From contig CP012155.1 in assembly GCA_001602415.1 (NCBI GenBank), positions 2,874,824-2,938,823 of the forward strand: a stretch of 64,000 nt of DNA, given 5' to 3'. The stretch comes from Bacteroidetes bacterium UKL13-3. GTDB lineage: Bacteria; Bacteroidota; Bacteroidia; UKL13-3. A program made the translations under genes and the position numbers. This document shows positions 7,210 to 42,818 of the stretch, piece after piece. Every line of letters begins with the position of its first letter. The first letter of the stretch is position 1. Under the pieces are notes generated by a model, which was not told where the DNA came from, did no database searches, and saw nothing but the letters and a program-made list of their open reading frames with translations.

Positions 7210-9024
7210 ATGAGCGATATAATAAAACTGTTACCCGACCATGTGGCTAATCAAATTGCTGCGGGAGAAGTTATCCAACGACCCGCATCAGTTGTCAAAG
7301 AATTACTTGAAAACGCGATTGATGCCGGCAGCACAGATATAACATTAGTCATTAAAGAAGGTGGTAAAACCTTTATCCAGGTAATTGATAATGGAAAAGG
7401 AATGTCGCCCAGCGATGCGCGCATGTGTTGGGAGCGCCACGCCACATCTAAAATTGCTGCTGCTGAAGATATTTACAATGTAAAAACGATGGGATTTAGG
7501 GGCGAGGCGTTGGCCTCCATTGCATCTGTTGCGCAGGTTGAAATGAAAACAAAACGAGAGGAAGACAGCGTTGGAACATTAATTTTGATTGAGGCTTCGG
7601 AAGTAAAAAAACAGGAGTCGTTTGCAGGAAATACTGGTACAAGCTTTACCATAAAAAATCTCTTTTACAATATTCCGGCACGCAGAAATTTCTTGAAATC
7701 AAACCCTGTTGAAACACGCCACATCATGGATGAGTTTTTACGTGTTGCATTGGCCAATCCTGAAATTGCGTTAAGCATGTATAACAATGATGCCGATGTT
7801 TATCTTTTACCGAAAGGTGATTTGCAAAAACGTATTCAGGATATATTTGGATACAAATCACCTGAACAGATTCTGCCAGCCAATGAGGAAACGTCTATTA
7901 TCAATGTACATGGCTTTATTGGCAAACCAGAAAATGCCAAGAAAACAAGAGGTGAACAGTACTTTTTTGTAAACAAACGTTTTATCAAAGATGCATACCT
8001 CAACCATGCAGTAACAAGTTGTTATGAAAATCTAATGCCAAAAGATCAATATCCATTTTATGTTTTGCATATTGATATTGACCCTGCGCAAATTGATGTG
8101 AACGTTCATCCAACCAAAACGGAAATAAAGTTTGAAGACGAACGTTCTGTTTATCAAATTGTAAGAGCTGTAGCTAAAAAAGCTATTGGTCAACATTATC
8201 ACACACCTACCTACGAACCAGCAAGCGAGGATACTTTTTTAAACCTCACCCGACCTGATGCCCCGTTAACTTTTGCATCAACACCTGAGCGAAGAGGAAG
8301 CGATCCGTATACCAAAAATACTTTTACCAAACCTGCTGAAAAACAAGATTGGCAGGAGTTGTTTAATGTGATAAATAAAAAAGGTGATGTTGTTGGAAAA
8401 CAATTTGCTCCACAGCGTAACGAGGAATTACGACAAGCAACTTTAACACCCGAAGTAGTTACCCGTCAGGTTATGCAAGTGCATCAAAGTCTTATTATTT
8501 CACAAATAAAATCCGGTATTCTATTAATTGATCAACAGGCTGCGCACGAAAGGGTATTGTATGAAAAGTATCTTATTGCCCTCGAAAATAATCCCGTTGC
8601 CAGTCAGCAAAAGTTATTCCCCAAAACCATTTTATTGCAACCTGCCGATGAACAACTTTTGTTAGAAATGATGCAGGAAATTCGAGCTTTAGGGTTTGAT
8701 ATTAACGAATTTGGCAAACATACTTTTGCGGTAAATGGTGTACCTGCCGAACTTAATCATTATAATGAACAAGATTTAATTATACAATTGATTGAGGGCT
8801 ATAAAAACCAATCGAGTACGGCCTTAAACAAGAAAGAAAAAGTAGCTCGAACCCTTGCCAAACGTGCCGCCACCAAAACAGGAACCAGCCTTAACCAAGA
8901 AGAAATGAATATGCTTATTGATGAGTTATTTGCGTGCAAGGAGCCCAACTATGCTCCCGATGGAAAAGTATGCTTAACCACTTTAAGTTTGCAGCAACTG
9001 TTTGAAATATTAGGAAAGAAATAA
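7210..9024 (+). CDS. mutL: DNA mismatch repair protein MutL
   Basis: MSDIIKLLPDHVANQIAAGEVIQRPASVVKELLENAIDAG is the GHKL ATPase N-terminus of MutL. The start is the internal ATG at 7210, so the upstream 34 codons in the ORF track are unlikely to be translated. Confidence 0.9.
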   Translation: MSDIIKLLPDHVANQIAAGEVIQRPASVVKELLENAIDAGSTDITLVIKEGGKTFIQVIDNGKGMSPSDARMCWERHATSKIAAAEDIYNVKTMGFRGEALASIASVAQVEMKTKREEDSVGTLILIEASEVKKQESFAGNTGTSFTIKNLFYNIPARRNFLKSNPVETRHIMDEFLRVALANPEIALSMYNNDADVYLLPKGDLQKRIQDIFGYKSPEQILPANEETSIINVHGFIGKPENAKKTRGEQYFFVNKRFIKDAYLNHAVTSCYENLMPKDQYPFYVLHIDIDPAQIDVNVHPTKTEIKFEDERSVYQIVRAVAKKAIGQHYHTPTYEPASEDTFLNLTRPDAPLTFASTPERRGSDPYTKNTFTKPAEKQDWQELFNVINKKGDVVGKQFAPQRNEELRQATLTPEVVTRQVMQVHQSLIISQIKSGILLIDQQAAHERVLYEKYLIALENNPVASQQKLFPKTILLQPADEQLLLEMMQEIRALGFDINEFGKHTFAVNGVPAELNHYNEQDLIIQLIEGYKNQSSTALNKKEKVARTLAKRAATKTGTSLNQEEMNMLIDELFACKEPNYAPDGKVCLTTLSLQQLFEILGKK

Positions 9025-9030
9025 AAGAAA

Positions 9031-11022
9031 TTATTCAGCTAATAACTCCGTAACTCTTCCATTTTCGTCAATCAAAATCGAATCTGTTTCTAATGTATCT
9101 GAGCTTATTTTGATAAACCCTTTTGCAAGCCCTGCAATCTTAATGGGCTGAGCGGCCATGAGCGTATCGGAAGGTTCTAAAACTGCTCTACGCATCATGA
9201 GGTTTGTGAGGAAAGTGAATTGTTTGCTTGCAAATTCTTTGAGGTTTCCATCTTTACCAAACCTCCACATAAATCCCTTCGGACGAGGAATAATCGTTGC
9301 TAAAAATAAACACTCATTCAGTGTTAAATCGGATGGTCGTTTTTGAAAATAAAATTGAACTGCTTCCCCAATTCCATATACATTTGGTCCCCATTCAATA
9401 ATATTAAAATATACTTCGAGCATCCGGTCTTTTGAACTGATGCGGTTATTCTCCAGAATGTATACTAGCAAAATTTCTTCCATTTTACGAGAGATTGTTT
9501 TTTCGCGCGTTAAGAAAACATTTTTCACCAACTGCATGCTTATAGTGCTAGCACCACGAGCAAATTTGCGTTTGCGAATATTTTTAATGATAGACTGACG
9601 AAAGGCTTCATCAATAAATCCTCGGTGAAAGAAAAATGAAGGATCTTCGGTTGTGAGTACACATTTCTTCAGATAAGGAGAGAGCTGATTGAGCGGTGTG
9701 TAATAGGGATTGGCAGTACTCACTAAAATAGGACGTTGAGGTCGTCCGTTTTCTATTGGTGTATACACGAAATCTCCATTCAATTTACTCAAATTGGCTT
9801 CTCCATATTTCACAATACGCAAATCATCTTTGTGAAGAGTACTCTCAAAAATTAGATCTTGGGGCTTATTTTCATTGTAAACAAAGTCTAATCTGTAATC
9901 AAAACTACCGGTTGTTTCCATTCCTTTAAAATGCGAAAACAAACCTTCAGGTAGTGATGAGATAAAATGCTGTGCCTCCATATTTGGAATGGTTACGTGC
10001 ATTTCATAAATAGTATCTTCTTGTATTTTTAACCCAATAAACGGAATAAATGTGACCTTGTTAAACCTTACACTTGAAGAGCTATCGAGCTGAATAAAAT
10101 CGGCACCTGCAATAAAATGATAATCAAAACGAGCATCTTCTATCACAACATCTTTTTTAGCTATTTTAGGATGGTTAATAATAAAATTTTTAATGGATGC
10201 AAAACCTGCTACATGTAATTCGTCTCCATCCATATCAACACTTCTCAAATCAAGTTGGATGGAATCAAAACCAGACACAAGATTAAACTGCTCATCAACA
10301 TAAGGAATACGAACATGTCCAGTATCTAAACTAAAAAAAGAAAGATTTGCCTTTTTATCACGAGGATCAGCTACACCTTGAATACTCCATCGCTGCATAA
10401 ATGTGCTTGTGGTTACATGAATAGTTGATTGCAATTGCTCATCCATAAATGAAAGGTTTTGCAGCCGTATCTCCACCTTGTGTCCCATATCATCGGTGCG
10501 TAATGCTAGATTTTCTATACTCATGTGAGTTGGAACTAAGTTGAGTATTTTAGAAATAAGACGATACACAATTTTTGCATAGTTCGTTTTGGTAACTTTT
10601 TCAACCTCCGCCTCTGTTGTCGCATCTTTTGATTGAATCAAAAAAACATCAAAGTTTCTACCTTGTTCGTTTTTTACTAACTGCACAAAACCATCTTTTA
10701 CTTCTAGATTTTTTAGCCGCACATCGCCTATTAAAGCATACCAAAAACTAATACTTGCAGATAAATGTACGATGTTAAACAAGGTATCAGCATTGTTTGG
10801 AACAAGTATTACATTATTCAGCTCAACACCTGCTAAACCCGTGAAAGAAGCATTTTCAACCGAAAACGTACTATTGTATTCTCTTTGAATTTTTACCGTT
10901 ACCTTATCGATAGTGCGGTGAAGCAACATGTTTCGGAGCGCAAAAAAGCCAATTATCGCAAGCACAAAAAAAACACCGATAACTTTTAGAACGGCTACCA
11001 GTGTTTTTTTCCAATTATTCAT
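9031..11022 (-). CDS. membrane-anchored protein with C-terminal peptidoglycan glycosyltransferase (GT51 transglycosylase) domain
   Basis: 663 aa with an N-terminal TM helix. The C-terminal third carries transglycosylase motifs: EDPSFFFHRGFD, GASTISMQLVKN, RKMEEILLVYILE. The long N-terminal region is of unknown function. Confidence 0.6.
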   Translation of the reverse strand: MNNWKKTLVAVLKVIGVFFVLAIIGFFALRNMLLHRTIDKVTVKIQREYNSTFSVENASFTGLAGVELNNVILVPNNADTLFNIVHLSASISFWYALIGDVRLKNLEVKDGFVQLVKNEQGRNFDVFLIQSKDATTEAEVEKVTKTNYAKIVYRLISKILNLVPTHMSIENLALRTDDMGHKVEIRLQNLSFMDEQLQSTIHVTTSTFMQRWSIQGVADPRDKKANLSFFSLDTGHVRIPYVDEQFNLVSGFDSIQLDLRSVDMDGDELHVAGFASIKNFIINHPKIAKKDVVIEDARFDYHFIAGADFIQLDSSSSVRFNKVTFIPFIGLKIQEDTIYEMHVTIPNMEAQHFISSLPEGLFSHFKGMETTGSFDYRLDFVYNENKPQDLIFESTLHKDDLRIVKYGEANLSKLNGDFVYTPIENGRPQRPILVSTANPYYTPLNQLSPYLKKCVLTTEDPSFFFHRGFIDEAFRQSIIKNIRKRKFARGASTISMQLVKNVFLTREKTISRKMEEILLVYILENNRISSKDRMLEVYFNIIEWGPNVYGIGEAVQFYFQKRPSDLTLNECLFLATIIPRPKGFMWRFGKDGNLKEFASKQFTFLTNLMMRRAVLEPSDTLMAAQPIKIAGLAKGFIKISSDTLETDSILIDENGRVTELLAE

Positions 11023-18242: not shown

Positions 18243-19313
18243 TAACCTGAGTTCGGTTTAAGCAGCTAATGTCAATTGTTGTTCAAGTTGCTTGATAAGC
18301 TGAGGGTTTGTTTCCTCAATATCTTTTTTGATGGAAGGTTTTTTAGGAAAGAAAGAATACGCAGCAATTGCACTCATAATATTAAGAAGAAAACCGCTGA
18401 TAGAGCGATGTCTTGTATGTTCAACTTGACAAATGTTTTTTAACTCATCATTTACGGTTTCAATCACGGACCGTTTCCTTAAAAGAAGTTTCTCTTCATT
18501 GCTCAATGCTTTAGATTTCATGTTTCTTCTTACAGCTGTAATGAGTTGTATACCGTTGCCAAAAAGCAGATCACTCAATGCTTTTGAGATATATCCCTTA
18601 TCTCCAAATAGTTTTCCGAAAAGGTCTTTAGTCATATTGGTAATTGTTTTAGCATCTCTATCATCCACATTTCCTTTGGTTAGAAAGAAAGATAATATCT
18701 CACCTTTGTCGTTTATAATCAGGTGAAGTTTAAAGCCAAAGAACCATCCCATTGATGATTTACCAACATCTGCAAAGCCTTTAAATGTTTTATTACGCTT
18801 TATCCTTTTGTTGTGACAAACACGCAGTACAGTATAATCAATAAAGCTAATGCCAGTGCACTCGCCTTTGCAACAATGATGGAGAAACAACATGAATGCA
18901 ATAGCACAACGATGACTCAATTCAACAAACCTGTTATAGGAAACCAATCCGGGAAAATCTTCTCTTAAATGAACAGACACATAGTCCACATAAAAATGCT
19001 TGAAATTCCTGAATTGACCACCATGAAACGCAATCAGGAGTGTGATAATTTCAGAGTCACACATTCCGGCTTTTCTATTTCTTGTTTTAACGTTTGATGG
19101 TGCGGGTAATTGGTGTTTTGAATACAAAATTTCAAATTCATTGCAGAAATCATCAACTTTTACAAAAGTTTCTGTAATTTTATCTTGTAGCATTGGTGTG
19201 TTTTTTATGTTTTTTTGGACTACAAAATTAACACTTCCAATGCTACTAATTATTTGATTACCAAATAATTATAAACAAAATAATCAACACTTTCTTATCC
19301 CGAACTCAGGTTA
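18243..19313 (-). mobile_element. IS982-family insertion sequence (~1.07 kb) with 13-14 bp terminal inverted repeats
   Basis: Terminal IRs AACCTGAGTTCGG (18244-18256) and CCGAACTCAGGTT (19300-19312) flank a single transposase ORF. The size is typical of IS982. Confidence 0.7.
18258..19193 (-). CDS. IS982 family DDE transposase
   Basis: 311 aa. N-terminus ...KVDDFCNEF... and C-terminal DKGYIS...LITAVRRNMK pattern characteristic of IS982 transposases. Confidence 0.85.
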   Translation of the reverse strand: MLQDKITETFVKVDDFCNEFEILYSKHQLPAPSNVKTRNRKAGMCDSEIITLLIAFHGGQFRNFKHFYVDYVSVHLREDFPGLVSYNRFVELSHRCAIAFMLFLHHCCKGECTGISFIDYTVLRVCHNKRIKRNKTFKGFADVGKSSMGWFFGFKLHLIINDKGEILSFFLTKGNVDDRDAKTITNMTKDLFGKLFGDKGYISKALSDLLFGNGIQLITAVRRNMKSKALSNEEKLLLRKRSVIETVNDELKNICQVEHTRHRSISGFLLNIMSAIAAYSFFPKKPSIKKDIEETNPQLIKQLEQQLTLAA

Positions 19314-19605
19314 CTATTATTTTCAAGTAATTGCGTTGGAAGGAAATACGCCCTATGTTTTGCTGGTATGCACAAGAATGACCGAGCACAACACAAAAGA
19401 AATAAGGAAGAGAAGCCCTAATCAGAGTTTGAGGATTTAAAAGAGAAAACCCTTTCGACAGATCCGGTAGAATTTTTATCCTTGAGGTAAGATGGACAAG
19501 TCACGCACGACACGTGTGCCAAAAAGGAACATTACCGGCTGAGTTCAGCATCTGAGGAAAGACCTCTTAAAGTTTTACCCTTGAGATAAACGGTGGGAAT
19601 GCTAA

Positions 19606-19633
19606 TTCGCACTAACGTGACGTTAGCGCGAAC
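19606..19633. repeat. palindromic repeat TTCGCACTAACG(T/A)GACGTTAGCGCGAAC, copy 1 of 2
   Basis: A near-identical 28-mer recurs at 39482-39509 with 1 mismatch. It forms an imperfect hairpin (CACTAACG/CGTTAG-G). Confidence 0.7.
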
Positions 19634-19686
19634 AGAGCTAAATTTAATCTATTCTCGATGCACCCATCATCCGCTACTCGAACCGA

Positions 19687-20244
19687 CTATAATTGTCCTT
19701 CCAGCATCATCAGCTTTAGTTTAAGTACCGCTGCCACGGTTAAACTATCGGTTACAAAGCCTTCTTTCACCAAGCGATATAACTCCTCAAACGGAACCTT
19801 ACGGATGCGGAGTTGTTCGTTTTCTTCAGGCTGCGCTTGCGTATAGGTAAGTTTCCTTGCCACAAATAAATGCGCCACTTCATCGGTTGCTGAATTGCTG
19901 AGTTGCAGCTGTTGAATAGGAATATATTCTTCGGCAATAATTCCGCACTCTTCCAATAATTCTCTTTTAGCGGATTCAACAGGATCAACATCCAAATCGC
20001 CTCCACCTTCGGGAATTTCCCATGTATACGTGTGAAGAGGGTAACGGTACTGTCCAACAATCCATGTGTTGTTATCTTCATCCAATGGCACAATGCCAAT
20101 GGCTAATTTTTTAAACCTCACTACAGAATAGGTTCCGGGATTTCCGGCAGGATTCAACACTTCATGATGCTCTACACCAATCCATGGCGATTCATAAACT
20201 TGGTTACGGTTTAAGGTTGTCCAGGGATTTTGTTCTTCTTTCAT
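19687..20244 (-). CDS. NUDIX hydrolase
   Basis: Nudix box GGGDLDVDPVESAKRELLEECGI. Confidence 0.8.
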   Translation of the reverse strand: MKEEQNPWTTLNRNQVYESPWIGVEHHEVLNPAGNPGTYSVVRFKKLAIGIVPLDEDNNTWIVGQYRYPLHTYTWEIPEGGGDLDVDPVESAKRELLEECGIIAEEYIPIQQLQLSNSATDEVAHLFVARKLTYTQAQPEENEQLRIRKVPFEELYRLVKEGFVTDSLTVAAVLKLKLMMLEGQL

Positions 20245-37218: not shown

Positions 37219-38706
37219 TTAAAATTCCAATTCGTTAATCAGTGCTTTTCGAAACAACGAATCTATGTTTCCGTTTCCGTTCAACCGATTCAGCGGAAGT
37301 GTACACACAATCAAATCAGTTTTTCCGGTGCCCACTTTAATGCGCTTGCTCAATACTGTTGAAGCACCCATCCAGGCAGTTGTTCCGTTTACGTTTTGTG
37401 CAAGAATATTTGCCCTGCATGTTGAATCGTAAGTGAACGCTCCCGAAGGTGTGCTAAAGGTAACAAAAGGGCGCGCACTCGATAAGATAGAAGTAGATTT
37501 TAACACAGGCCAGCCACTACCTGCAATATGTGGGTACATTAATTCGCCAATATTCATTCGAAGTGTTACTCCGGCAGGCGGCACCACCAATTCTTGTATA
37601 GGTGTAAAACTGAAAAAAATGGAATTATACGGAAAATCATTAGCCATTTCGCATACCAAAAACATACGACCACCTTGTTGAAAAAAATTGGCCGTAACCA
37701 ATTGCGCCAAGCCAAGGGTGCTGTTTGGATTATCGCTAAACCACACAATGCGCTTATAAAATTCCAACGTTTTAACGATGGTAAACACATCATCGGGCAA
37801 GTCGGAAGCAATACTGATTACCGAATCAAACTGGTTGTATCCGGAACCTAAATTTGATAGTTGTGCATTGTAAAACGTTTGAACCGGACCTTTGGTACTG
37901 TAGTCATTAATCAACAACAAATCAGACTTTGGTCTTTTAATAAAAATAGAATCTTTGGCCCAGGCTGATTTTAATCCCACTCTATCAACTGCACGGATGT
38001 ATATTTTATTTAACTGATTGTACAAAACGCCATTTAACTTATCGGGAAAAGGAACAGAACGGTTGTTTTGATACACGAACAAAACAGTATCAAACACCCC
38101 TGCTGTAACTTGTGCTACAAAACTAGCAGCAATGCTGTTTCCGGTAATAACTAAAGGTGTTTTAGTCGTATCATTCAATACGATTTCGATGTTTTGAATA
38201 TCCAATGGTCCGTCAATATCCGTTGCGGTCCAATAATACCTAAAAGCCGGAAACGCGCTTGTACGTCTGCCCCTAGAATAATCCATTTCCAAAGCAGGTG
38301 CAGAATTTTTTACAGGAAATACCATGATGGCAGGTGTAGGATCTTTCTGCCCCAAATTATCGACTGCTCTCACGTAAATAGGTAAATTTCCACTTTGTTG
38401 CCCTACCGGCAAATTGAGCAAAAATGAGCCCTTTTGATTTTTTGTAAAAGTCCATGTTTGCTGGTTATCGATGGATACTTCATACCCACTGATAAAACCC
38501 TTTTTCGATTCGCCCCACCAGCGTGCTTCAACAGTTGTGGAAAGCAAATTATTGGTATCTCTTCTTATGGAGTCAACAACGGTGTAGGTTTCGGGAAGGG
38601 TTTGGGTATTCTCTGTTCCTTCAAAATCTTTACGACACGAAACGGCAACCACACCGATAAGCACACAAAATAATAGTAGTTTACGCATGAACCTTTGGGT
38701 TTTCAA
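37219..38706 (-). CDS. hypothetical lipoprotein
   Basis: 495 aa, signal peptide with lipobox (VAVSC). No recognised catalytic motifs. Immediately follows purN with no gap. Confidence 0.45.
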   Translation of the reverse strand: MKTQRFMRKLLLFCVLIGVVAVSCRKDFEGTENTQTLPETYTVVDSIRRDTNNLLSTTVEARWWGESKKGFISGYEVSIDNQQTWTFTKNQKGSFLLNLPVGQQSGNLPIYVRAVDNLGQKDPTPAIMVFPVKNSAPALEMDYSRGRRTSAFPAFRYYWTATDIDGPLDIQNIEIVLNDTTKTPLVITGNSIAASFVAQVTAGVFDTVLFVYQNNRSVPFPDKLNGVLYNQLNKIYIRAVDRVGLKSAWAKDSIFIKRPKSDLLLINDYSTKGPVQTFYNAQLSNLGSGYNQFDSVISIASDLPDDVFTIVKTLEFYKRIVWFSDNPNSTLGLAQLVTANFFQQGGRMFLVCEMANDFPYNSIFFSFTPIQELVVPPAGVTLRMNIGELMYPHIAGSGWPVLKSTSILSSARPFVTFSTPSGAFTYDSTCRANILAQNVNGTTAWMGASTVLSKRIKVGTGKTDLIVCTLPLNRLNGNGNIDSLFRKALINELEF

Positions 38707-38821
38707 TCTGCAATAATAACGTATGTAAGGTTAAGTAAAAATTAAATGCTTGAGTAAAATACTCCCGCACTCTTACAAAACATAAATTACTCTGCAAACA
38801 ATTCAAAGAATTTCTTAACGC

Positions 38822-39040
38822 AAAATACTTATCTTTTTAACAACCCATTGTTCATTTTCTCCCAGTATTCGGAGCATATACAATCCTTCTGCGATGTTGG
38901 ACACATCAATGGTTTGTGTTTCCGCATTGCCTTTATACGCAAGGTTGCCTGTTGTATTCCAAAGTTCAAAGGCTTTATGTGGATAAGAGGATTGAATATG
39001 AAGGATGGTGCTTACTGGATTGGGATAAATAAGAAACTAA
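38822..39040 (-). pseudogene. orphan T9SS C-terminal sorting domain remnant, without start codon or upstream body
   Basis: Minus-strand translation gives IYPNPVSTILHIQSSYPHKAFELWNTTGNLAYKGNAETQTIDVSNIAEGLYMLRILGENEQWVVKKISILR*. This is the canonical type-A T9SS CTD pattern (YPNP...idvSnlaeGlYilri...K.ikk). The frame is closed by a stop immediately upstream, at the hairpin CTCTGCACTgaaaGTGCAGAG. Confidence 0.55.
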
Positions 39041-39095
39041 ATTACTCTGCACTGAAAGTGCAGAGGTTTAGAGGAAGAAGAATGAAATTCTTCTT

Positions 39096-39314
39096 TCACG
39101 TCTCGAGAATCATTGTCCCATCAGTATCGTTAGTCGAATCTCGATGATGATCTAAGTACTTTTGTACCATATCATCGGTTATGTTACCTGTACTCCATGC
39201 TCCGTAACCTGAGGCCCAAAAGTGACGACCCCAGTAACGTTTCTCTATCCAAGGATACTCCTGTTGTAACTTACGTGATGTATGACCTTTCAAGCGCTTT
39301 ACCAAATCAATCAC
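39096..39314 (-). pseudogene. IS200/IS605-family Y1 transposase (TnpA) C-terminal fragment
   Basis: 72 aa: VKRLKGHTSRKLQQEYPWIEKRYWGRHFWASGYGAWSTGNITDDMVQKYLDHH matches the C-terminal half of IS200 TnpA, including the catalytic-Tyr region. The N-terminal HuH-containing half is absent from every frame. Confidence 0.7.
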
Positions 39315-39338
39315 ACTTAGTTTAGGAGGGTATTCTGT

Positions 39339-39371
39339 TCACGCTAACATCTTGTTAGTGTGAATTCAGAA
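39339..39371. repeat. 33-bp hairpin-containing repeat TCACGCTAACATCTTGTTAGTGTG(A/T)ATTCAGAA, copy 1
   Basis: Second direct copy at 39561-39593 with 1 mismatch. Contains the hairpin CACGCTAACA-tctt-TGTTAGTGTG. Confidence 0.7.
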
Positions 39372-39481
39372 CGGCAAACGTTGAATGCATCGGAATGCTT
39401 AAGCGCAGCACACACCAAATGAGGCATAATTGTGAGGTTATTTAAAACAGTTAAGATAGGATTAGCATGGGGAATTCTTCT

Positions 39482-39509
39482 TTCGCACTAACGAGACGTT
39501 AGCGCGAAC
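39482..39509. repeat. palindromic repeat TTCGCACTAACGAGACGTTAGCGCGAAC, copy 2 of the 19606 element
   Basis: 27/28 identical to 19606-19633. Confidence 0.7.
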
Positions 39510-39560
39510 TTGGCAACTAATCCTTTTAACCTCAACTGAGGCTTCAATCAACTCCCCAGC

Positions 39561-39593
39561 TCACGCTAACATCTTGTTAGTGTGTATTCAGAA
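39561..39593. repeat. 33-bp hairpin-containing repeat, copy 2
   Basis: Direct repeat of 39339-39371, 222 bp downstream. Confidence 0.7.
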
Positions 39594-39731
39594 GTCAATT
39601 GCTGAACGTATCGGTTAAACAGGGAAGATACACGGAAGGTAAGTCCGCGACAACGATAATTTGCCATCTACTCTGTGTAATTTTTCTTCATTAATACATC
39701 AGTGTAATCTGTGGCAACCCTTCCCGAAAGA

Positions 39732-41210
39732 CTACACCTCCTTGCGCAACCTTGCTACCGGAATATTTAATTGCTCACGGTATTTAGCTACGGTTCTGCG
39801 GGCAATATTGTATCCTTTGTCTTTCAGTATTTCCATCAATTTTTCATCGGGCAACGGCTTGTGTTTGTCTTCTGCTTCAATGGCATCTTTCAAAATTCTT
39901 TTCACCTCGCGGCTACTTACTTCTTCGCCATCATCGGTTGCTATACCTTCGCTAAAAAAGAACTTTAGCGGAATGGTGCCAAAATCAGTTTGAACATATT
40001 TGCTATTGGCAACTCGCGAAATAGTAGAAATATCCATTCCAACTTTTTCGGCAATATCTTTCAAAATCATGGGGCGCATTTTGGTTTCGTCACCCGTTTC
40101 GAAGTAGGCATACTGCTGCTGCAAAATCGCATTCATCGTCATCAACAAAGTATTCTGACGTTGTTTAATGGAATCGATAAACCACTTAGCTCCATCCAAT
40201 TTTTGCTTAATAAACTGAACGGTTTGTTTCAGTTCTTTACCGGGCTTTTCTGTTTTGTCATAAGCTTTTAGTGTTTCCATGTAACTGCGGCTAATGCGCA
40301 AATCGGGAGCGTTGCGCGAGTTGAGTAGCACTTCAAGTTTGCCCTCATTTTCCACCAAAATAAAATCGGGTGTAATATACTGTGGCTTCGAATCGGAAAC
40401 AGATTCACCCGGTTTAGGATTAAGGTGTGTAATTACCTTAATGGCATCTTTAAGTTGCTCATCTGTAATTTTGAGGGAACGAGTAAGTTTTTCGTAGTGC
40501 TTTTTGGTAAAATCATCGAAGTAATCGCGCAGCAAAACCTCAGCTATTCGCACCCCATCACGTGCGTGGTCCTTACGTTTTAGTTGCAACAATAAACACT
40601 CTTGTAAGCTAGTAGCGGCAATACCGGCAGGCTCTAGTGCTTGAATTTTTACCAAACAGGTTTTAAGTTCATCAATACTTGCCTCAATGTTTTGTGAAAA
40701 CGCCAAATCGTTTTGAATGGCTTCTAATGGTCTGCGCAAATAACCATCATCATCAATGGTGCCGATGATTTGGTTGCCCATTATTTGTTCGCGTTCATTT
40801 TCGGCAATGGCATTAAACTGCTCTGCTAATAGCTCATGAAAACTAGTTGTTTCGGCCAGGGGCATTTCCTTTTTATCGTCATCAGGACCTTCATCGCTCA
40901 GGTGAAATCCCTCCGAATCATAATCATCATTTACATATTCCTTGATATCGAGGGTTTCATCCGTTAAATAATCTTCCACCGAAACATTGTCCTCTTGCCC
41001 ATCGTCTGCCGTTTCAGCCTCTTTAATATCCGACTCGAGCGGAGCAGCTGCATCCTCGTCTTCCGACTTTACCAATGCTGGGTTCTCAATGAGTTCGTCA
41101 TCAATTCGTTGCTGTAAATCAACCGTGTTGAGTTGCAACAATTTAATAAATTGTATTTGCTGTGGCGACAGCTTTTGCAGCAGTTTTTGTTGTAATCCCT
41201 GTTTTAACAT
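39732..41210 (-). CDS. rpoN: RNA polymerase sigma-54 factor
   Basis: N-terminal Gln/Leu-rich activator-interacting region (MLKQGLQQKLLQKLSPQQIQFIKLLQL). C-terminal RpoN box ARRTVAKYRE. Confidence 0.9.
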   Translation of the reverse strand: MLKQGLQQKLLQKLSPQQIQFIKLLQLNTVDLQQRIDDELIENPALVKSEDEDAAAPLESDIKEAETADDGQEDNVSVEDYLTDETLDIKEYVNDDYDSEGFHLSDEGPDDDKKEMPLAETTSFHELLAEQFNAIAENEREQIMGNQIIGTIDDDGYLRRPLEAIQNDLAFSQNIEASIDELKTCLVKIQALEPAGIAATSLQECLLLQLKRKDHARDGVRIAEVLLRDYFDDFTKKHYEKLTRSLKITDEQLKDAIKVITHLNPKPGESVSDSKPQYITPDFILVENEGKLEVLLNSRNAPDLRISRSYMETLKAYDKTEKPGKELKQTVQFIKQKLDGAKWFIDSIKQRQNTLLMTMNAILQQQYAYFETGDETKMRPMILKDIAEKVGMDISTISRVANSKYVQTDFGTIPLKFFFSEGIATDDGEEVSSREVKRILKDAIEAEDKHKPLPDEKLMEILKDKGYNIARRTVAKYREQLNIPVARLRKEV

Positions 41211-41303: not shown

Positions 41304-42818
41304 ATGTATATTAAAGATTTGAGTTTGCATGAGGAGAAAGAAATAACCCTGCAAGGTTGGGCGGCCAACAAACGCGAAAGCAAGGGGTTGGTTTTTATCA
41401 TTTTGCGTGATGGAACAGGCTTGTGCCAGTGTGTGGTAGATGCCAATAAAGTTTCGGAAGAAATATTTGCACATGCCCAAAAAGTGTCGCTTGAAACATC
41501 GTTGAGCATTACCGGAACGGTAGTAAAAGATGATCGTCAGGTGGGTGGATATGAATTGCAAGCCACTTCTGTGACCATTATTGGAGGTTCGGTTGATTAC
41601 CCGATTGCTAAAAAAGAGCATGGAGTTGAGTTTCTGATGGATCACCGTCATTTGTGGTTGCGCAGCCAGCGTCAGTGGGCGATTATGAAAATTCGTAACC
41701 GTATTATTTATTCCATACACCAGTTTTTTCAAGAAGAAGGATATATTCAGATGGATGCTCCGTTGTTTACCGCTAATGCATCTGAAGGAACCTCAACCTT
41801 GTTTGAAACTGATTTTTATGGAGAGCCTTCGTATCTATCGCAATCGGGCCAATTGTATGGTGAAGCAATGGCAATGGCAATGGGAAAAATATACACGTTC
41901 GGTCCAACCTTTCGTGCCGAGAAATCTAAAACCCGCAGGCATTTATCCGAGTTTTGGATGATTGAGCCGGAGATGGCGTTTCATGATATTTTTCAAAACA
42001 TGGATGTGATTGAAGCCTTTTTACGCAAGGTTGTTTCGGATGTATTGGCGGAGTGTAAAAACGAGTTGGCCATTATTGGAAGAGACACAGCATTGCTCGA
42101 AAACATTGTGAAACCGTTCCCTCGTTTAACCTACGATGAGGCCGTAAAAATCATCAAAGGTGAAGAGAATGTAAATGGTGTGAATGCGATTGAGTCGTTG
42201 GAAGAAGAGTTGAAAAAAGTAGTAGCACGAATGGAAGAGGTGAAGGCAGAAATAGCAGAGCGTGAAGAAAAGATTAAAGTTCCGGGTATGAAAAAAGGAG
42301 AGATTGGATTTAATCAAGCCAAGATAGATAAGCTGAAACAGGAGTTGGCAGATTTGGAAGAAGATCAACGCAATATTCCGGGATGGCTCAACAGTGCCCG
42401 TAATTTTGAATATGGAAACGATTTCGGAGGAAGCGATGAAACGGTTATCACCCGATTGTTCGACCGCCCAATTATGGTTTACAATTGGCCACATGAGGTA
42501 AAAGCATTCTATTTAAAGCGTGATCCGAATAACAGTCATTTTGCGCGTGGTGTGGATGTTTTGGCTCCAGAAGGATACGGAGAAATTGTTGGTGGTGGAG
42601 AACGTGAAACAGACTTAACGTTATTGGTTGATAAGATTAACGAACATAAACTACCAATGGAAGCCTTTGAGTGGTACCTTGATTTGCGCAGATTTGGTTC
42701 GGTGCCACATGCAGGTTTTGGCTTGGGCTTAGAGCGTTTGGTAACTTGGGTGTGTAAATTGCCGCATGTGCGCGAAAGTATTCCATTCCCACGCATGTAT
42801 GGTCGATTGAAGCCGTAG
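41304..42818 (+). CDS. asnS: asparagine--tRNA ligase (Bacteroidetes-type with insertion)
   Basis: Class II aaRS motifs: FRAE (motif 2 region), GFGLGLERL (motif 3). Anticodon-binding OB N-terminus. A ~40-aa coiled-coil insertion is present. Confidence 0.85.
   Translation: MYIKDLSLHEEKEITLQGWAANKRESKGLVFIILRDGTGLCQCVVDANKVSEEIFAHAQKVSLETSLSITGTVVKDDRQVGGYELQATSVTIIGGSVDYPIAKKEHGVEFLMDHRHLWLRSQRQWAIMKIRNRIIYSIHQFFQEEGYIQMDAPLFTANASEGTSTLFETDFYGEPSYLSQSGQLYGEAMAMAMGKIYTFGPTFRAEKSKTRRHLSEFWMIEPEMAFHDIFQNMDVIEAFLRKVVSDVLAECKNELAIIGRDTALLENIVKPFPRLTYDEAVKIIKGEENVNGVNAIESLEEELKKVVARMEEVKAEIAEREEKIKVPGMKKGEIGFNQAKIDKLKQELADLEEDQRNIPGWLNSARNFEYGNDFGGSDETVITRLFDRPIMVYNWPHEVKAFYLKRDPNNSHFARGVDVLAPEGYGEIVGGGERETDLTLLVDKINEHKLPMEAFEWYLDLRRFGSVPHAGFGLGLERLVTWVCKLPHVRESIPFPRMYGRLKP

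Follow-up and report, generated by a model that had tools for sequence, protein, structure and literature searches.

The intergenic region at positions 38707-39731 of a 64,000-nucleotide stretch of the Bacteroidetes bacterium UKL13-3 genome (contig CP012155.1, positions 2,874,824 to 2,938,823; hereafter the window, with a G+C content of 38%) is very probably a composite scar of three unrelated things: the tail of a type IX secretion system (T9SS) cargo gene, half of an IS200-type insertion sequence (IS), and a cluster of hairpin repeats resembling repetitive extragenic palindromes (REPs). The gap is ~1 kb long and lies between two housekeeping genes. SprA, the T9SS tails and sigma-54 assign the organism to Bacteroidota. 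All of its parts are known kinds of element, namely an IS200, REPs of the kind that form bacterial interspersed mosaic elements (BIMEs), accompanied by the relic of a gene for a REP-associated tyrosine transposase (RAYT), and a pseudogene tail. Taken by itself, the locus is a routine genomic scar in which an IS200 copy and a gene tail, both dead, lie beside some REPs. It is useful as a worked example of how two separate Y1-transposase systems, IS200 and RAYT/REP, that adjoin in one Bacteroidota genome can be distinguished by their hairpins.

We compared the region with natural alleles of the locus, consisting of many short metagenome contigs with identical RpoN and lipoprotein proteins and one NCBI contig from a metagenome-assembled genome (MAG; DQEA01000008.1 of GCA_003525585.1). 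Several of the population contigs end in or near the hairpin repeats, and population contigs also break inside the IS element. DQEA01000008.1 spans exactly the interval from the edge of an IS982 element (~19188) to the right end of the IS200-type element (39055).

The IS200-type fragment and the interrupted cargo gene

The ends of the IS were defined from 11 copies, one in sister contig L014 and ten of an 89%-identical relative (P0001), located in different flanks. Contig L014 carries the complete element at 432-1000 (569 bp), encoding a TnpA of 143 amino acids that matches the NCBIfam model NF033573 transpos_IS200 with 138.7 bits (cutoff 55) and Pfam Y1_Tnp with E=2e-39. It is the same as the window until 39335 and then continues with the rest of tnpA, and contig L015 agrees with L014 for 18 nt past the window's breakpoint. 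All 11 copies extend from TTTAT^TGGTCTC..CATGCACTTTAGTGCAAG.. at the left to ..CTCTGCACTTTCAGTGCAGAGTAATTTAG^ (..GTAATTTAG^) at the right (carets mark element edges and, below, joins), the TTTAT directly 5' of the left end being conserved in every one. The element has been mobile, as indicated by at least six different left flanks and nine different right flanks among L038-L047. Terminal inverted repeats are absent. The 11 copies instead have two subterminal hairpins that resemble each other, a left-end hairpin CATGCACTT(C/T)AGTGCAAG and a right-end hairpin CTCTGCACTTTCAGTGCAGAG, which fold as single-stranded DNA at -5.9 and -9.0 kcal/mol, respectively. Such a pair of similar subterminal hairpins without inverted terminal repeats indicates the IS200/IS605 design. 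The window keeps only the right hairpin.

The transposase fragment in the window has an open reading frame (ORF) of 72 amino acids (39096-39314), and homology extends to 39335, giving 79 amino acids. It matches Pfam Y1_Tnp with E=4e-18, at profile positions 58-120 of 121 only, from which we conclude that the HUH half is missing; the region of the catalytic tyrosine is kept and the HUH motif is lost. An exact look-up of the 72-amino-acid ORF found it not on record. These results bear out a first-pass annotation, made from the sequence letters, that had recognized the C-terminal part of an IS200-type Y1 transposase without its N-terminal half, as well as a second hairpin. The latter lies directly after the tnpA stop and is conserved in relatives of the IS. 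The suggestion that the element has decayed since its insertion is not upheld: as the remaining 299 bp are 99.7% identical to an intact copy, the element was cut in one step rather than eroded by mutation. In place of its left 270 bp stands the edge of hairpin A1, one of the repeats described below. Neither a second IS200 nor an intact RAYT gene was found in the 64-kb window.

Directly beside the IS right end lies the cargo gene tail, whose translation (FLIYPNPV...KKISILR, then the stop) matches Pfam Por_Secre_tail (PF18962) with E=7e-13 over the full profile (1-75/75). The tail therefore has the C-terminal sorting domain (CTD; PF18962/TIGR04183) by which type-A T9SS cargo proteins are recognized. 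The frame at 38815-39036 lacks a start codon and encodes neither a signal peptide nor a passenger domain. It is closed at the tip of the IS right end, 73 codons from the stop, so that the window contains a remnant of a cargo gene and not the gene itself. The first-pass annotation had seen this start-less tail closed at a hairpin, giving it 70 codons instead of 73, and had proposed that an IS200-type element interrupted the gene. The alleles agree with that proposal. Sister contigs L011-L013 are 99.3% identical to the window until ~39037-39043, which is the IS right end, and divergent beyond; there they encode a 459-codon ORF with an identical CTD end, directly upstream of the lipoprotein gene, and L014 carries the whole IS. 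Judged from these reading frames, the cargo gene has a length of at least 459 codons at this position in the sister strains. The missing 5' part of the gene is absent elsewhere in the 64-kb window.

In L011, the sequence of the empty site is ..GAAATTGAT^TTTCTT (..ATTGAT^TTTCTT), which would place the insertion between codons D386 and F387, after TTGAT, a sequence close to the TTTAT that precedes the left end of every IS copy. The right flank shows no duplication, and no IS copy has flanks from the same gene on both sides. We infer that the element would have moved by single-strand ‘peel and paste’ transposition, as in IS608 and ISDra2, inserting 3' of a TT(T/G)AT site. IS608 and ISDra2 are the source of the known IS200/IS605 mechanism.

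The locus has been hit repeatedly, as a histidine kinase lies to the left of the IS in L014 and the cargo ORF in L011 follows the end of an IS30-family element. In L014 1-462, left of the intact IS, the histidine-kinase gene is truncated just before the HisKA region (..FVSNASHEFRTP..), which implies that two IS copies recombined or that the DNA was rearranged a second time. The IS30-family sequence at L011 1-172 is the C-terminal end of a transposase (NF033563 positions 229-265/267), and the 459-codon ORF opens with TTG 28 nt past it. Neither the L014 histidine kinase nor the alternative alleles are present elsewhere in the 64-kb window. Downstream of the cargo stop, the 14 nt at 38783-38796 are an exact direct repeat of 39038-39051 in the IS right end, for which ~0.002 occurrences are expected by chance. 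This copy of the tip also occurs in strains without this IS insertion (L011) and is probably a relic (footprint) of an earlier IS200 end, or else a chance mimic.

The CTAAC/GTTAG hairpins and the RAYT system

The CTAAC/GTTAG hairpins are, in all likelihood, REP-like palindromes of the type that flanks Bacteroidota RAYT genes, as judged from their sequence and predicted folding. The two 33-bp repeats and the 28-bp palindrome of the first-pass annotation are real: the former (39339-39371 and 39561-39593) are identical at 32/33 positions, and the latter (39482-39509) has a 27/28 copy at 19606-19633. The palindrome is the 33-nt unit inverted (~80% complementary). None of 100 shuffles gave a match, so the repeats are not expected by chance. 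A pattern scan combined with R1, a covariance model built from 16 REP units, found six sites in the 64-kb window, at two loci only: four good copies, A1, B1, A2 and B2, which score 40-42 bits and were training sequences of the model, and two relics. The stems are 11 bp with 5-nt loops, folding at -7 to -11 kcal/mol as single-stranded DNA with z-scores of -3.5 to -7.6, and all copies are intergenic and follow stop codons. Since the four REPs downstream of rpoN alternate in orientation (+,-,+,-), they form a BIME-like array. A 12-nt exact repeat, AATTCTTCTTTC, at 39086-39097 and 39473-39484 (~0.03 expected by chance in 1 kb) occurs both in the 5' flank of REP B1 and in an arm of the IS hairpin that directly follows the tnpA stop. 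An Rfam scan of 38000-40500 gave as its sole match a plant microRNA family, whose 27 bits lie far below the gathering score of 96; the match is spurious and results from the long inverted pair B1/A2.

It is extremely improbable that these hairpins are the ends, or derivatives resembling palindrome-associated transposable elements (PATEs), of the adjacent IS200 element. The hairpins do adjoin the tnpA fragment directly, and IS200/IS605 ends are subterminal hairpins (PMC3333891). However, the L014 copy and its ten relatives carry GCACT..AGTGC hairpins at both ends and no CTAAC hairpin, the cluster follows rpoN also in L001 and L005-L008, where the next sequence is not this IS, and the hairpins align with RAYT-flanking repeats instead. 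Thus, of the two origins that the first-pass annotation had offered, IS ends can be dismissed on the evidence of the 11 copies, and REP-like derivatives remain, with the difference that they belong to a separate RAYT system (NF047646). Confined to two sites in the window and unrelated to the IS ends, the hairpins are still a real family with relatives in other genomes.

At the second locus, REP B2 follows the decayed 3' part of a RAYT gene and is placed and oriented as the right-hand REP of a REPtron would be. By tblastn this remnant matches the RAYT of sister contig L001 (E=1e-7) and the protein P0155 (E=1e-10, 44% over 66 amino acids), and sister contigs L029 and L031 have the same stretch at 100% identity. 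The end of the remnant, ..EHYRLSSASEERPLKVLPLR followed by a stop, matches the 174-amino-acid protein of L001, which scores 106.5 bits on NF047646 (REP-associated tyrosine transposase; cutoff 80). In L001 a complete REPtron lies downstream of the rpoN REP cluster (region 7900-9100). Its RAYT gene (8118-8642, minus strand) is flanked by GTCACGGACG..CGTCCGCGACAACGG hairpins (GTCACGGACGGCACGTCCGCGACAACGG), with more copies at ~7935-7975 and ~9045-9085. The decayed REP at 39625-39661, the first unit after the rpoN stop, may be compared with this GTCACGGACGGCACGTCCGCGACAACGG type, and the region of the decayed REP at 19496-19532 shows a 77% nucleotide match to the L001 RAYT end plus REP.

The RAYT family has 355 members in the protein database, mostly from Bacteroidota, several of them named RayT by the Joint Genome Institute (JGI). 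P0155 is the intact member closest to the window remnant (88.4 bits on NF047646, above the cutoff of 80), and it was recovered from some of the metagenome samples that also gave contigs of the window's population. A 40-nt inverted repeat with 93% complementarity flanks the P0155 gene, and each arm of this repeat consists of a hairpin, CTCACGAAC-TCGGAG-GTTCGCGAG, followed by AACATGGG. Aligned with A1, A2, B1 and B2, the arms share T.C.CAC.AAC...GA.GTT.GCG.GA.C, and the alignment of B2 with the right flank of P0155 extends into the RAYT coding end, AAAGTTTT(A/G)CC(C/G)TTGAGATAA. In another genome, of 3.28 Mb, the paralogues P0150 and P0184 are flanked by TCACGGACG..CGTCCGCGAGAACGGAG units (arrays at P0150) and by TCACGCATTGCAAATGCGCGAGAAC.

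These units have a common design: a TCAC/GCGA foot that contains an A·C mismatch (read as G·T on the opposite strand), five variable pairs, a loop of 5-6 nt, and the tail (A/T/C)GAAC(A/G)G(A/G)G. The mismatch occupies the same stem position in all 16 units, including all those found independently of the pattern; in E. coli a stem mismatch is needed for RAYT binding (PMC3333891). Every pair in the 16 units is standard and 4/7 pairs have changed on both sides, most of the stem pairing in this alignment being imposed by the search pattern. The pairing evidence is limited to pair 6-27, which lies outside the pattern and is paired in 16/16 units with four pair types, and to the independently found units (the P0155 arms and the flanks in L001, L056 and L057).

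The hairpins might also be ordinary terminators or mRNA-stabilizing stem-loops that are merely alike and have no mobile or RAYT connection. Every copy indeed lies just past a stop codon (that of rpoN, that of the NUDIX gene at 19687-20244, and those of two convergent genes in L024). We nevertheless regard this as quite improbable. No T-run follows the stem, and a terminator scan flags the right-end hairpin of the IS and none of the CTAAC hairpins. The identities of 27/28 and 32/33 at unlinked loci and of 29/31 in another organism point to copying rather than convergence, and the flanks beyond the stem are also common to the RAYT-flanking repeats. Termination may be a secondary function of hairpins that we read as REPs.

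The relative in the other organism was found by scanning the GTDB species representatives (185,579 genomes) with a strict CTAAC pattern. This gave seven stretches, of which only L024, located between the two convergent genes of an uncultured Bacteroidetes MAG, is a relative. The other six, from Streptomyces and other distant taxa, were taken as chance matches at about the expected rate, their sequences uninspected. Scans of metagenomes with the hairpin pattern gave zero matches and then one, L028, which is unrelated and has a longer stem.

The remnant region 19341-19640 consists of two tandem modules of RAYT 3' end plus REP: ..EFLSLR and a stop with the relic REP, then ..KVLPLR and a stop with B2. 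Contig L001 likewise has repeated modules of gene-end-like sequence plus REP beside its RAYT gene. This arrangement suggests that a REP can be copied together with the final ~60 nt of the RAYT gene. The 3.28-Mb Bacteroidota genome contains at least three RAYT paralogues, P0150, P0174 and P0184 (L056 9700-10700 and L057 9800-10650). The flanks of P0150 and P0184 are dominated by different upper-stem variants, and one unit of the second type also occurs upstream of P0150. This distribution is consistent with co-evolution of RAYTs and REPs.

Strain breakpoints at the edges of the repeats

Four allele joins fall within 1-3 nt of the canonical outer end of a REP, as defined by the unlinked copy B2, which reads ..GCGAACAGAGC, and by the units of the L056 arrays, which end at the same position (..GAGAACGGAG^). 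Contigs L002-L004, from three samples, match the window only to 39553, right after the tail of A2 (..GTTAGCGTGAGCTGGGGA^AATCATTC.., that is ..GTGAGCTGGGGA^AATC); beyond the break they encode a start-less ORF of 184 amino acids and then a methyltransferase. L001 matches to 39334 (..GTGAACAGAG^CCTTTTC..) and continues with its REPtron. L005-L008, from four samples, read ..GTGAACAGAG^AAAAGCC.. and continue with an open frame without a start. We considered an IS30-type transposase for this frame (EKPKYEV..WSPELIS..), which gained no support: searches gave no homologue and no Pfam or NCBIfam match. In the window itself the junction ..GTGAACAGA^ATACCCTCC (^ATACC) leads into codon 65 of tnpA, with 2 nt of ambiguous overlap at 39334-39335.

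The window's junction between A1 and tnpA (39334-39336) could be an assembly chimera, given that it occurs in no public contig, that the 72-amino-acid ORF is not on record, and that many contigs of the population end in or near repeats. We think this quite improbable, because the sides have only 2 nt in common, leaving no overlap at which a k-mer assembler could mis-join them. Moreover, both flanks are 99-100% identical to independent contigs right up to the join, and equally abrupt joins occur at the same spot in sister-strain contigs from several samples.

If the junction is genuine, the following history can be proposed. A T9SS cargo gene would first have stood upstream of the lipoprotein gene, and the 569-bp IS200-type element would have entered it between codons D386 and F387. 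A later deletion or rearrangement may then have brought the outer edge of REP A1 up against the middle of tnpA, removing the left half of the IS, the 5' part of the cargo gene and whatever lay between. The order of these events, and the REP edge as a preferred point of breaking and joining, are our inference from the alleles. Several observations weigh against this account and against the identities assigned to the parts. No strain examined has the simple arrangement in which the IS separates the 5' and 3' parts of the cargo gene; the window's own junction is reproduced by no contig in public collections; and the 459-codon ‘intact’ cargo ORF has no obvious signal peptide and may itself be 5'-truncated. 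We found no intact RAYT gene flanked by the CTAAC variant itself, the stem pairing owes much to the search pattern as described above, and the REP family is low-copy in the visible data, so that the classical high abundance of REPs is unsupported.

The break could have come about through RAYT cleavage beside a bound hairpin or through illegitimate recombination provoked by the hairpin, two alternatives that are equally plain. In E. coli, binding of a REP by TnpAREP depends on the GTAG tag as well as on the mismatch in the stem; the enzyme cleaves single-stranded DNA at C^T sites of low specificity, which lie next to inverted REPs, in linkers and at distances of up to >400 nt, and it also carries out strand exchange (PMC3333891). 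REPs are also known targets of IS elements (PMC1525189). At the window junction there is no obvious fit to the C^T rule of the E. coli RAYT and no evident IS200 TTTA(T/G) motif, so no enzyme can be named from the junction sequence. We propose only tentatively, as an unlikely possibility, that the REP outer edge (..GCG(T/C)GAACAGAG^) might be a site-specific cleavage and joining point of a RAYT acting in trans. If so, REP arrays would be fixed anchors at which flanking DNA is deleted or exchanged, and joining at their edges would account for the island that differs between strains from rpoN to the lipoprotein gene, with its joins into the middle of other transposase genes. Such alleles would then be direct evidence, at the population level, that RAYTs shape gene content outside Proteobacteria. 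Four natural alleles that break within a few bases of REP edges offer a cheap lead on whether RAYTs cut and rejoin chromosomal DNA in the wild.

The REP locus at 19.6 kb is also a strain breakpoint, as contig L030 (5690-6300) diverges from the window ~50 nt beyond REP B2, with different genes following (DUF525, GerE-type). The RAYT remnant at this locus is abutted by an IS982-family element. In L029 and L031, 1065 bp of the IS982 region are replaced by 1203 bp with three small ORFs, which is a replacement and not a simple insertion. Coordinates of all features are given in Table 1.

Table 1. Features of the rpoN-lipoprotein gap, its neighbouring genes and the second REP locus (window positions; caret, edge or join).
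Feature	Position	Strand	Remarks
IS982-family element	18246-19310		311-amino-acid transposase at 18258-19193, NF033520 255 bits; abuts RAYT remnant
Decayed RAYT gene, 3' part	19341-19589	plus	In-frame stops; last ~20 codons (..EHYRLSSASEERPLKVLPLR, stop) as second module
Decayed REP	19496-19532	plus	Between the two RAYT 3'-end modules; R1 16.4 bits, E ~0.02; independent of model
REP B2	19604-19640	plus	17 nt after stop of RAYT remnant
Lipoprotein-like gene	37219-38706	minus	489/495 amino acids; start borders the gap
Solo 14-nt copy of IS200 right-end tip	38783-38796	minus	TGCAGAGTAATTTA; downstream of cargo stop
T9SS cargo 3' remnant	38815-39036	minus	73 codons and stop; complete type-A C-terminal sorting domain
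IS200-type (tnpA-only) fragment	39037-39335	minus	Right 299 bp of 569 bp; 99.7% identical to L014 702-1000
IS right-end tip	39037-39045	minus	..GTAATTTAG; inside IS fragment
IS right-end subterminal hairpin	39045-39065		CTCTGCACT-gaaa-GTGCAGAG; one base off the 39044-39064 of the first-pass annotation
Second hairpin	39074-39095		GAAGAAGAAT-gaa-ATTCTTCTT; directly after tnpA stop, inside element
tnpA codons 65-143 and stop	39096-39335	minus	Translation EYPPKLSVIDLVKRLKGH...MILET, stop
REP A1	39336-39371	minus	TTCTGAAT-TCACACTAAC-AAGAT-GTTAGCGTGA-ACAGA; outer edge is junction with truncated IS; R1 match 39330-39366 (-), 40.6 bits, training sequence
REP B1	39480-39516	plus	TTCGCACTAAC-GAGAC-GTTAGCGCGAAC; opposite orientation to A1
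REP A2	39552-39596	minus	Tail ..GTGAGCTGGGGA^; R1 match 39552-39588
Decayed REP, second type	39625-39661	plus	CACGGA..TCCGCGACAACG; regular expression and R1 15.7 bits, E ~0.04; independent of model
rpoN	39732-41210	minus	Stop borders the gap
asnS	41304-42818		Next after rpoN

Comparison with known systems

The element truncated in the window resembles the IS200 group (for example, Salmonella IS200) in its small Y1 HUH transposase (143 amino acids, NF033573 139 bits), in its imperfect, similar subterminal hairpins without terminal inverted repeats, in the TTTAT by its left end and in its many copies in differing flanks. It differs in that the window has just a dead right half, which possesses neither the HUH motif nor a left end. 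At 569 bp the element is also shorter than a typical IS200, which is roughly 700 bp long. The C-terminal motif, KYLDHH here, differs from the Y[IV]ENQ listed for subclass 1.1 by Quentin et al. (PMC6006769).

The hairpins resemble the REPs, BIMEs and REPtrons of E. coli and Pseudomonas (Nunvar 2010, PMC2817692; Ton-Hoang 2012, PMC3333891; Bertels & Rainey 2011, PMC3116915) in being extragenic palindromes with ~30-nt hairpins and ~37-nt units including flanks, and in their stem mismatch, their clusters of alternating orientation, the inverted copies that flank the RAYT gene and the strain polymorphism at the repeats. Unlike those REPs, they have no 5' GTAG tag and show instead the TCAC/GCGA foot and a GAAC(A/G)GAG tail. 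The GTAG or CGTC tetranucleotide, which defines the proteobacterial REP classes (PMC3733652), is absent from our units, which begin ..TCAC and end ..GCG(A/T/C)GAAC. In addition, their copy number looks low, against >100 REPs per genome in the classical case (PMC2817692), the copies are mostly REPtron-proximal, and the nearest RAYT is a pseudogene.

A closer counterpart is found in subclass 2.6 of TnpAREP, described by Quentin et al. (2018, PMC6006769) as mostly from Bacteroidetes, ~179 amino acids long and characterized by the motifs NH[LIV]H, WQ and YIH[QN]NP. Its genes are said there to be ‘flanked by atypical secondary structures’, and no GTAG tag is claimed for them. The RAYTs studied here are of similar length (~175-179 amino acids), and that of L001 has the motifs SHVH, WQ and YIHMNP. 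By comparison of motifs and length, the family matches subclass 2.6 as described in that source. For this Bacteroidota RAYT family, in place of the ‘atypical secondary structures’ of the same text, the units described above provide a concrete hairpin architecture.

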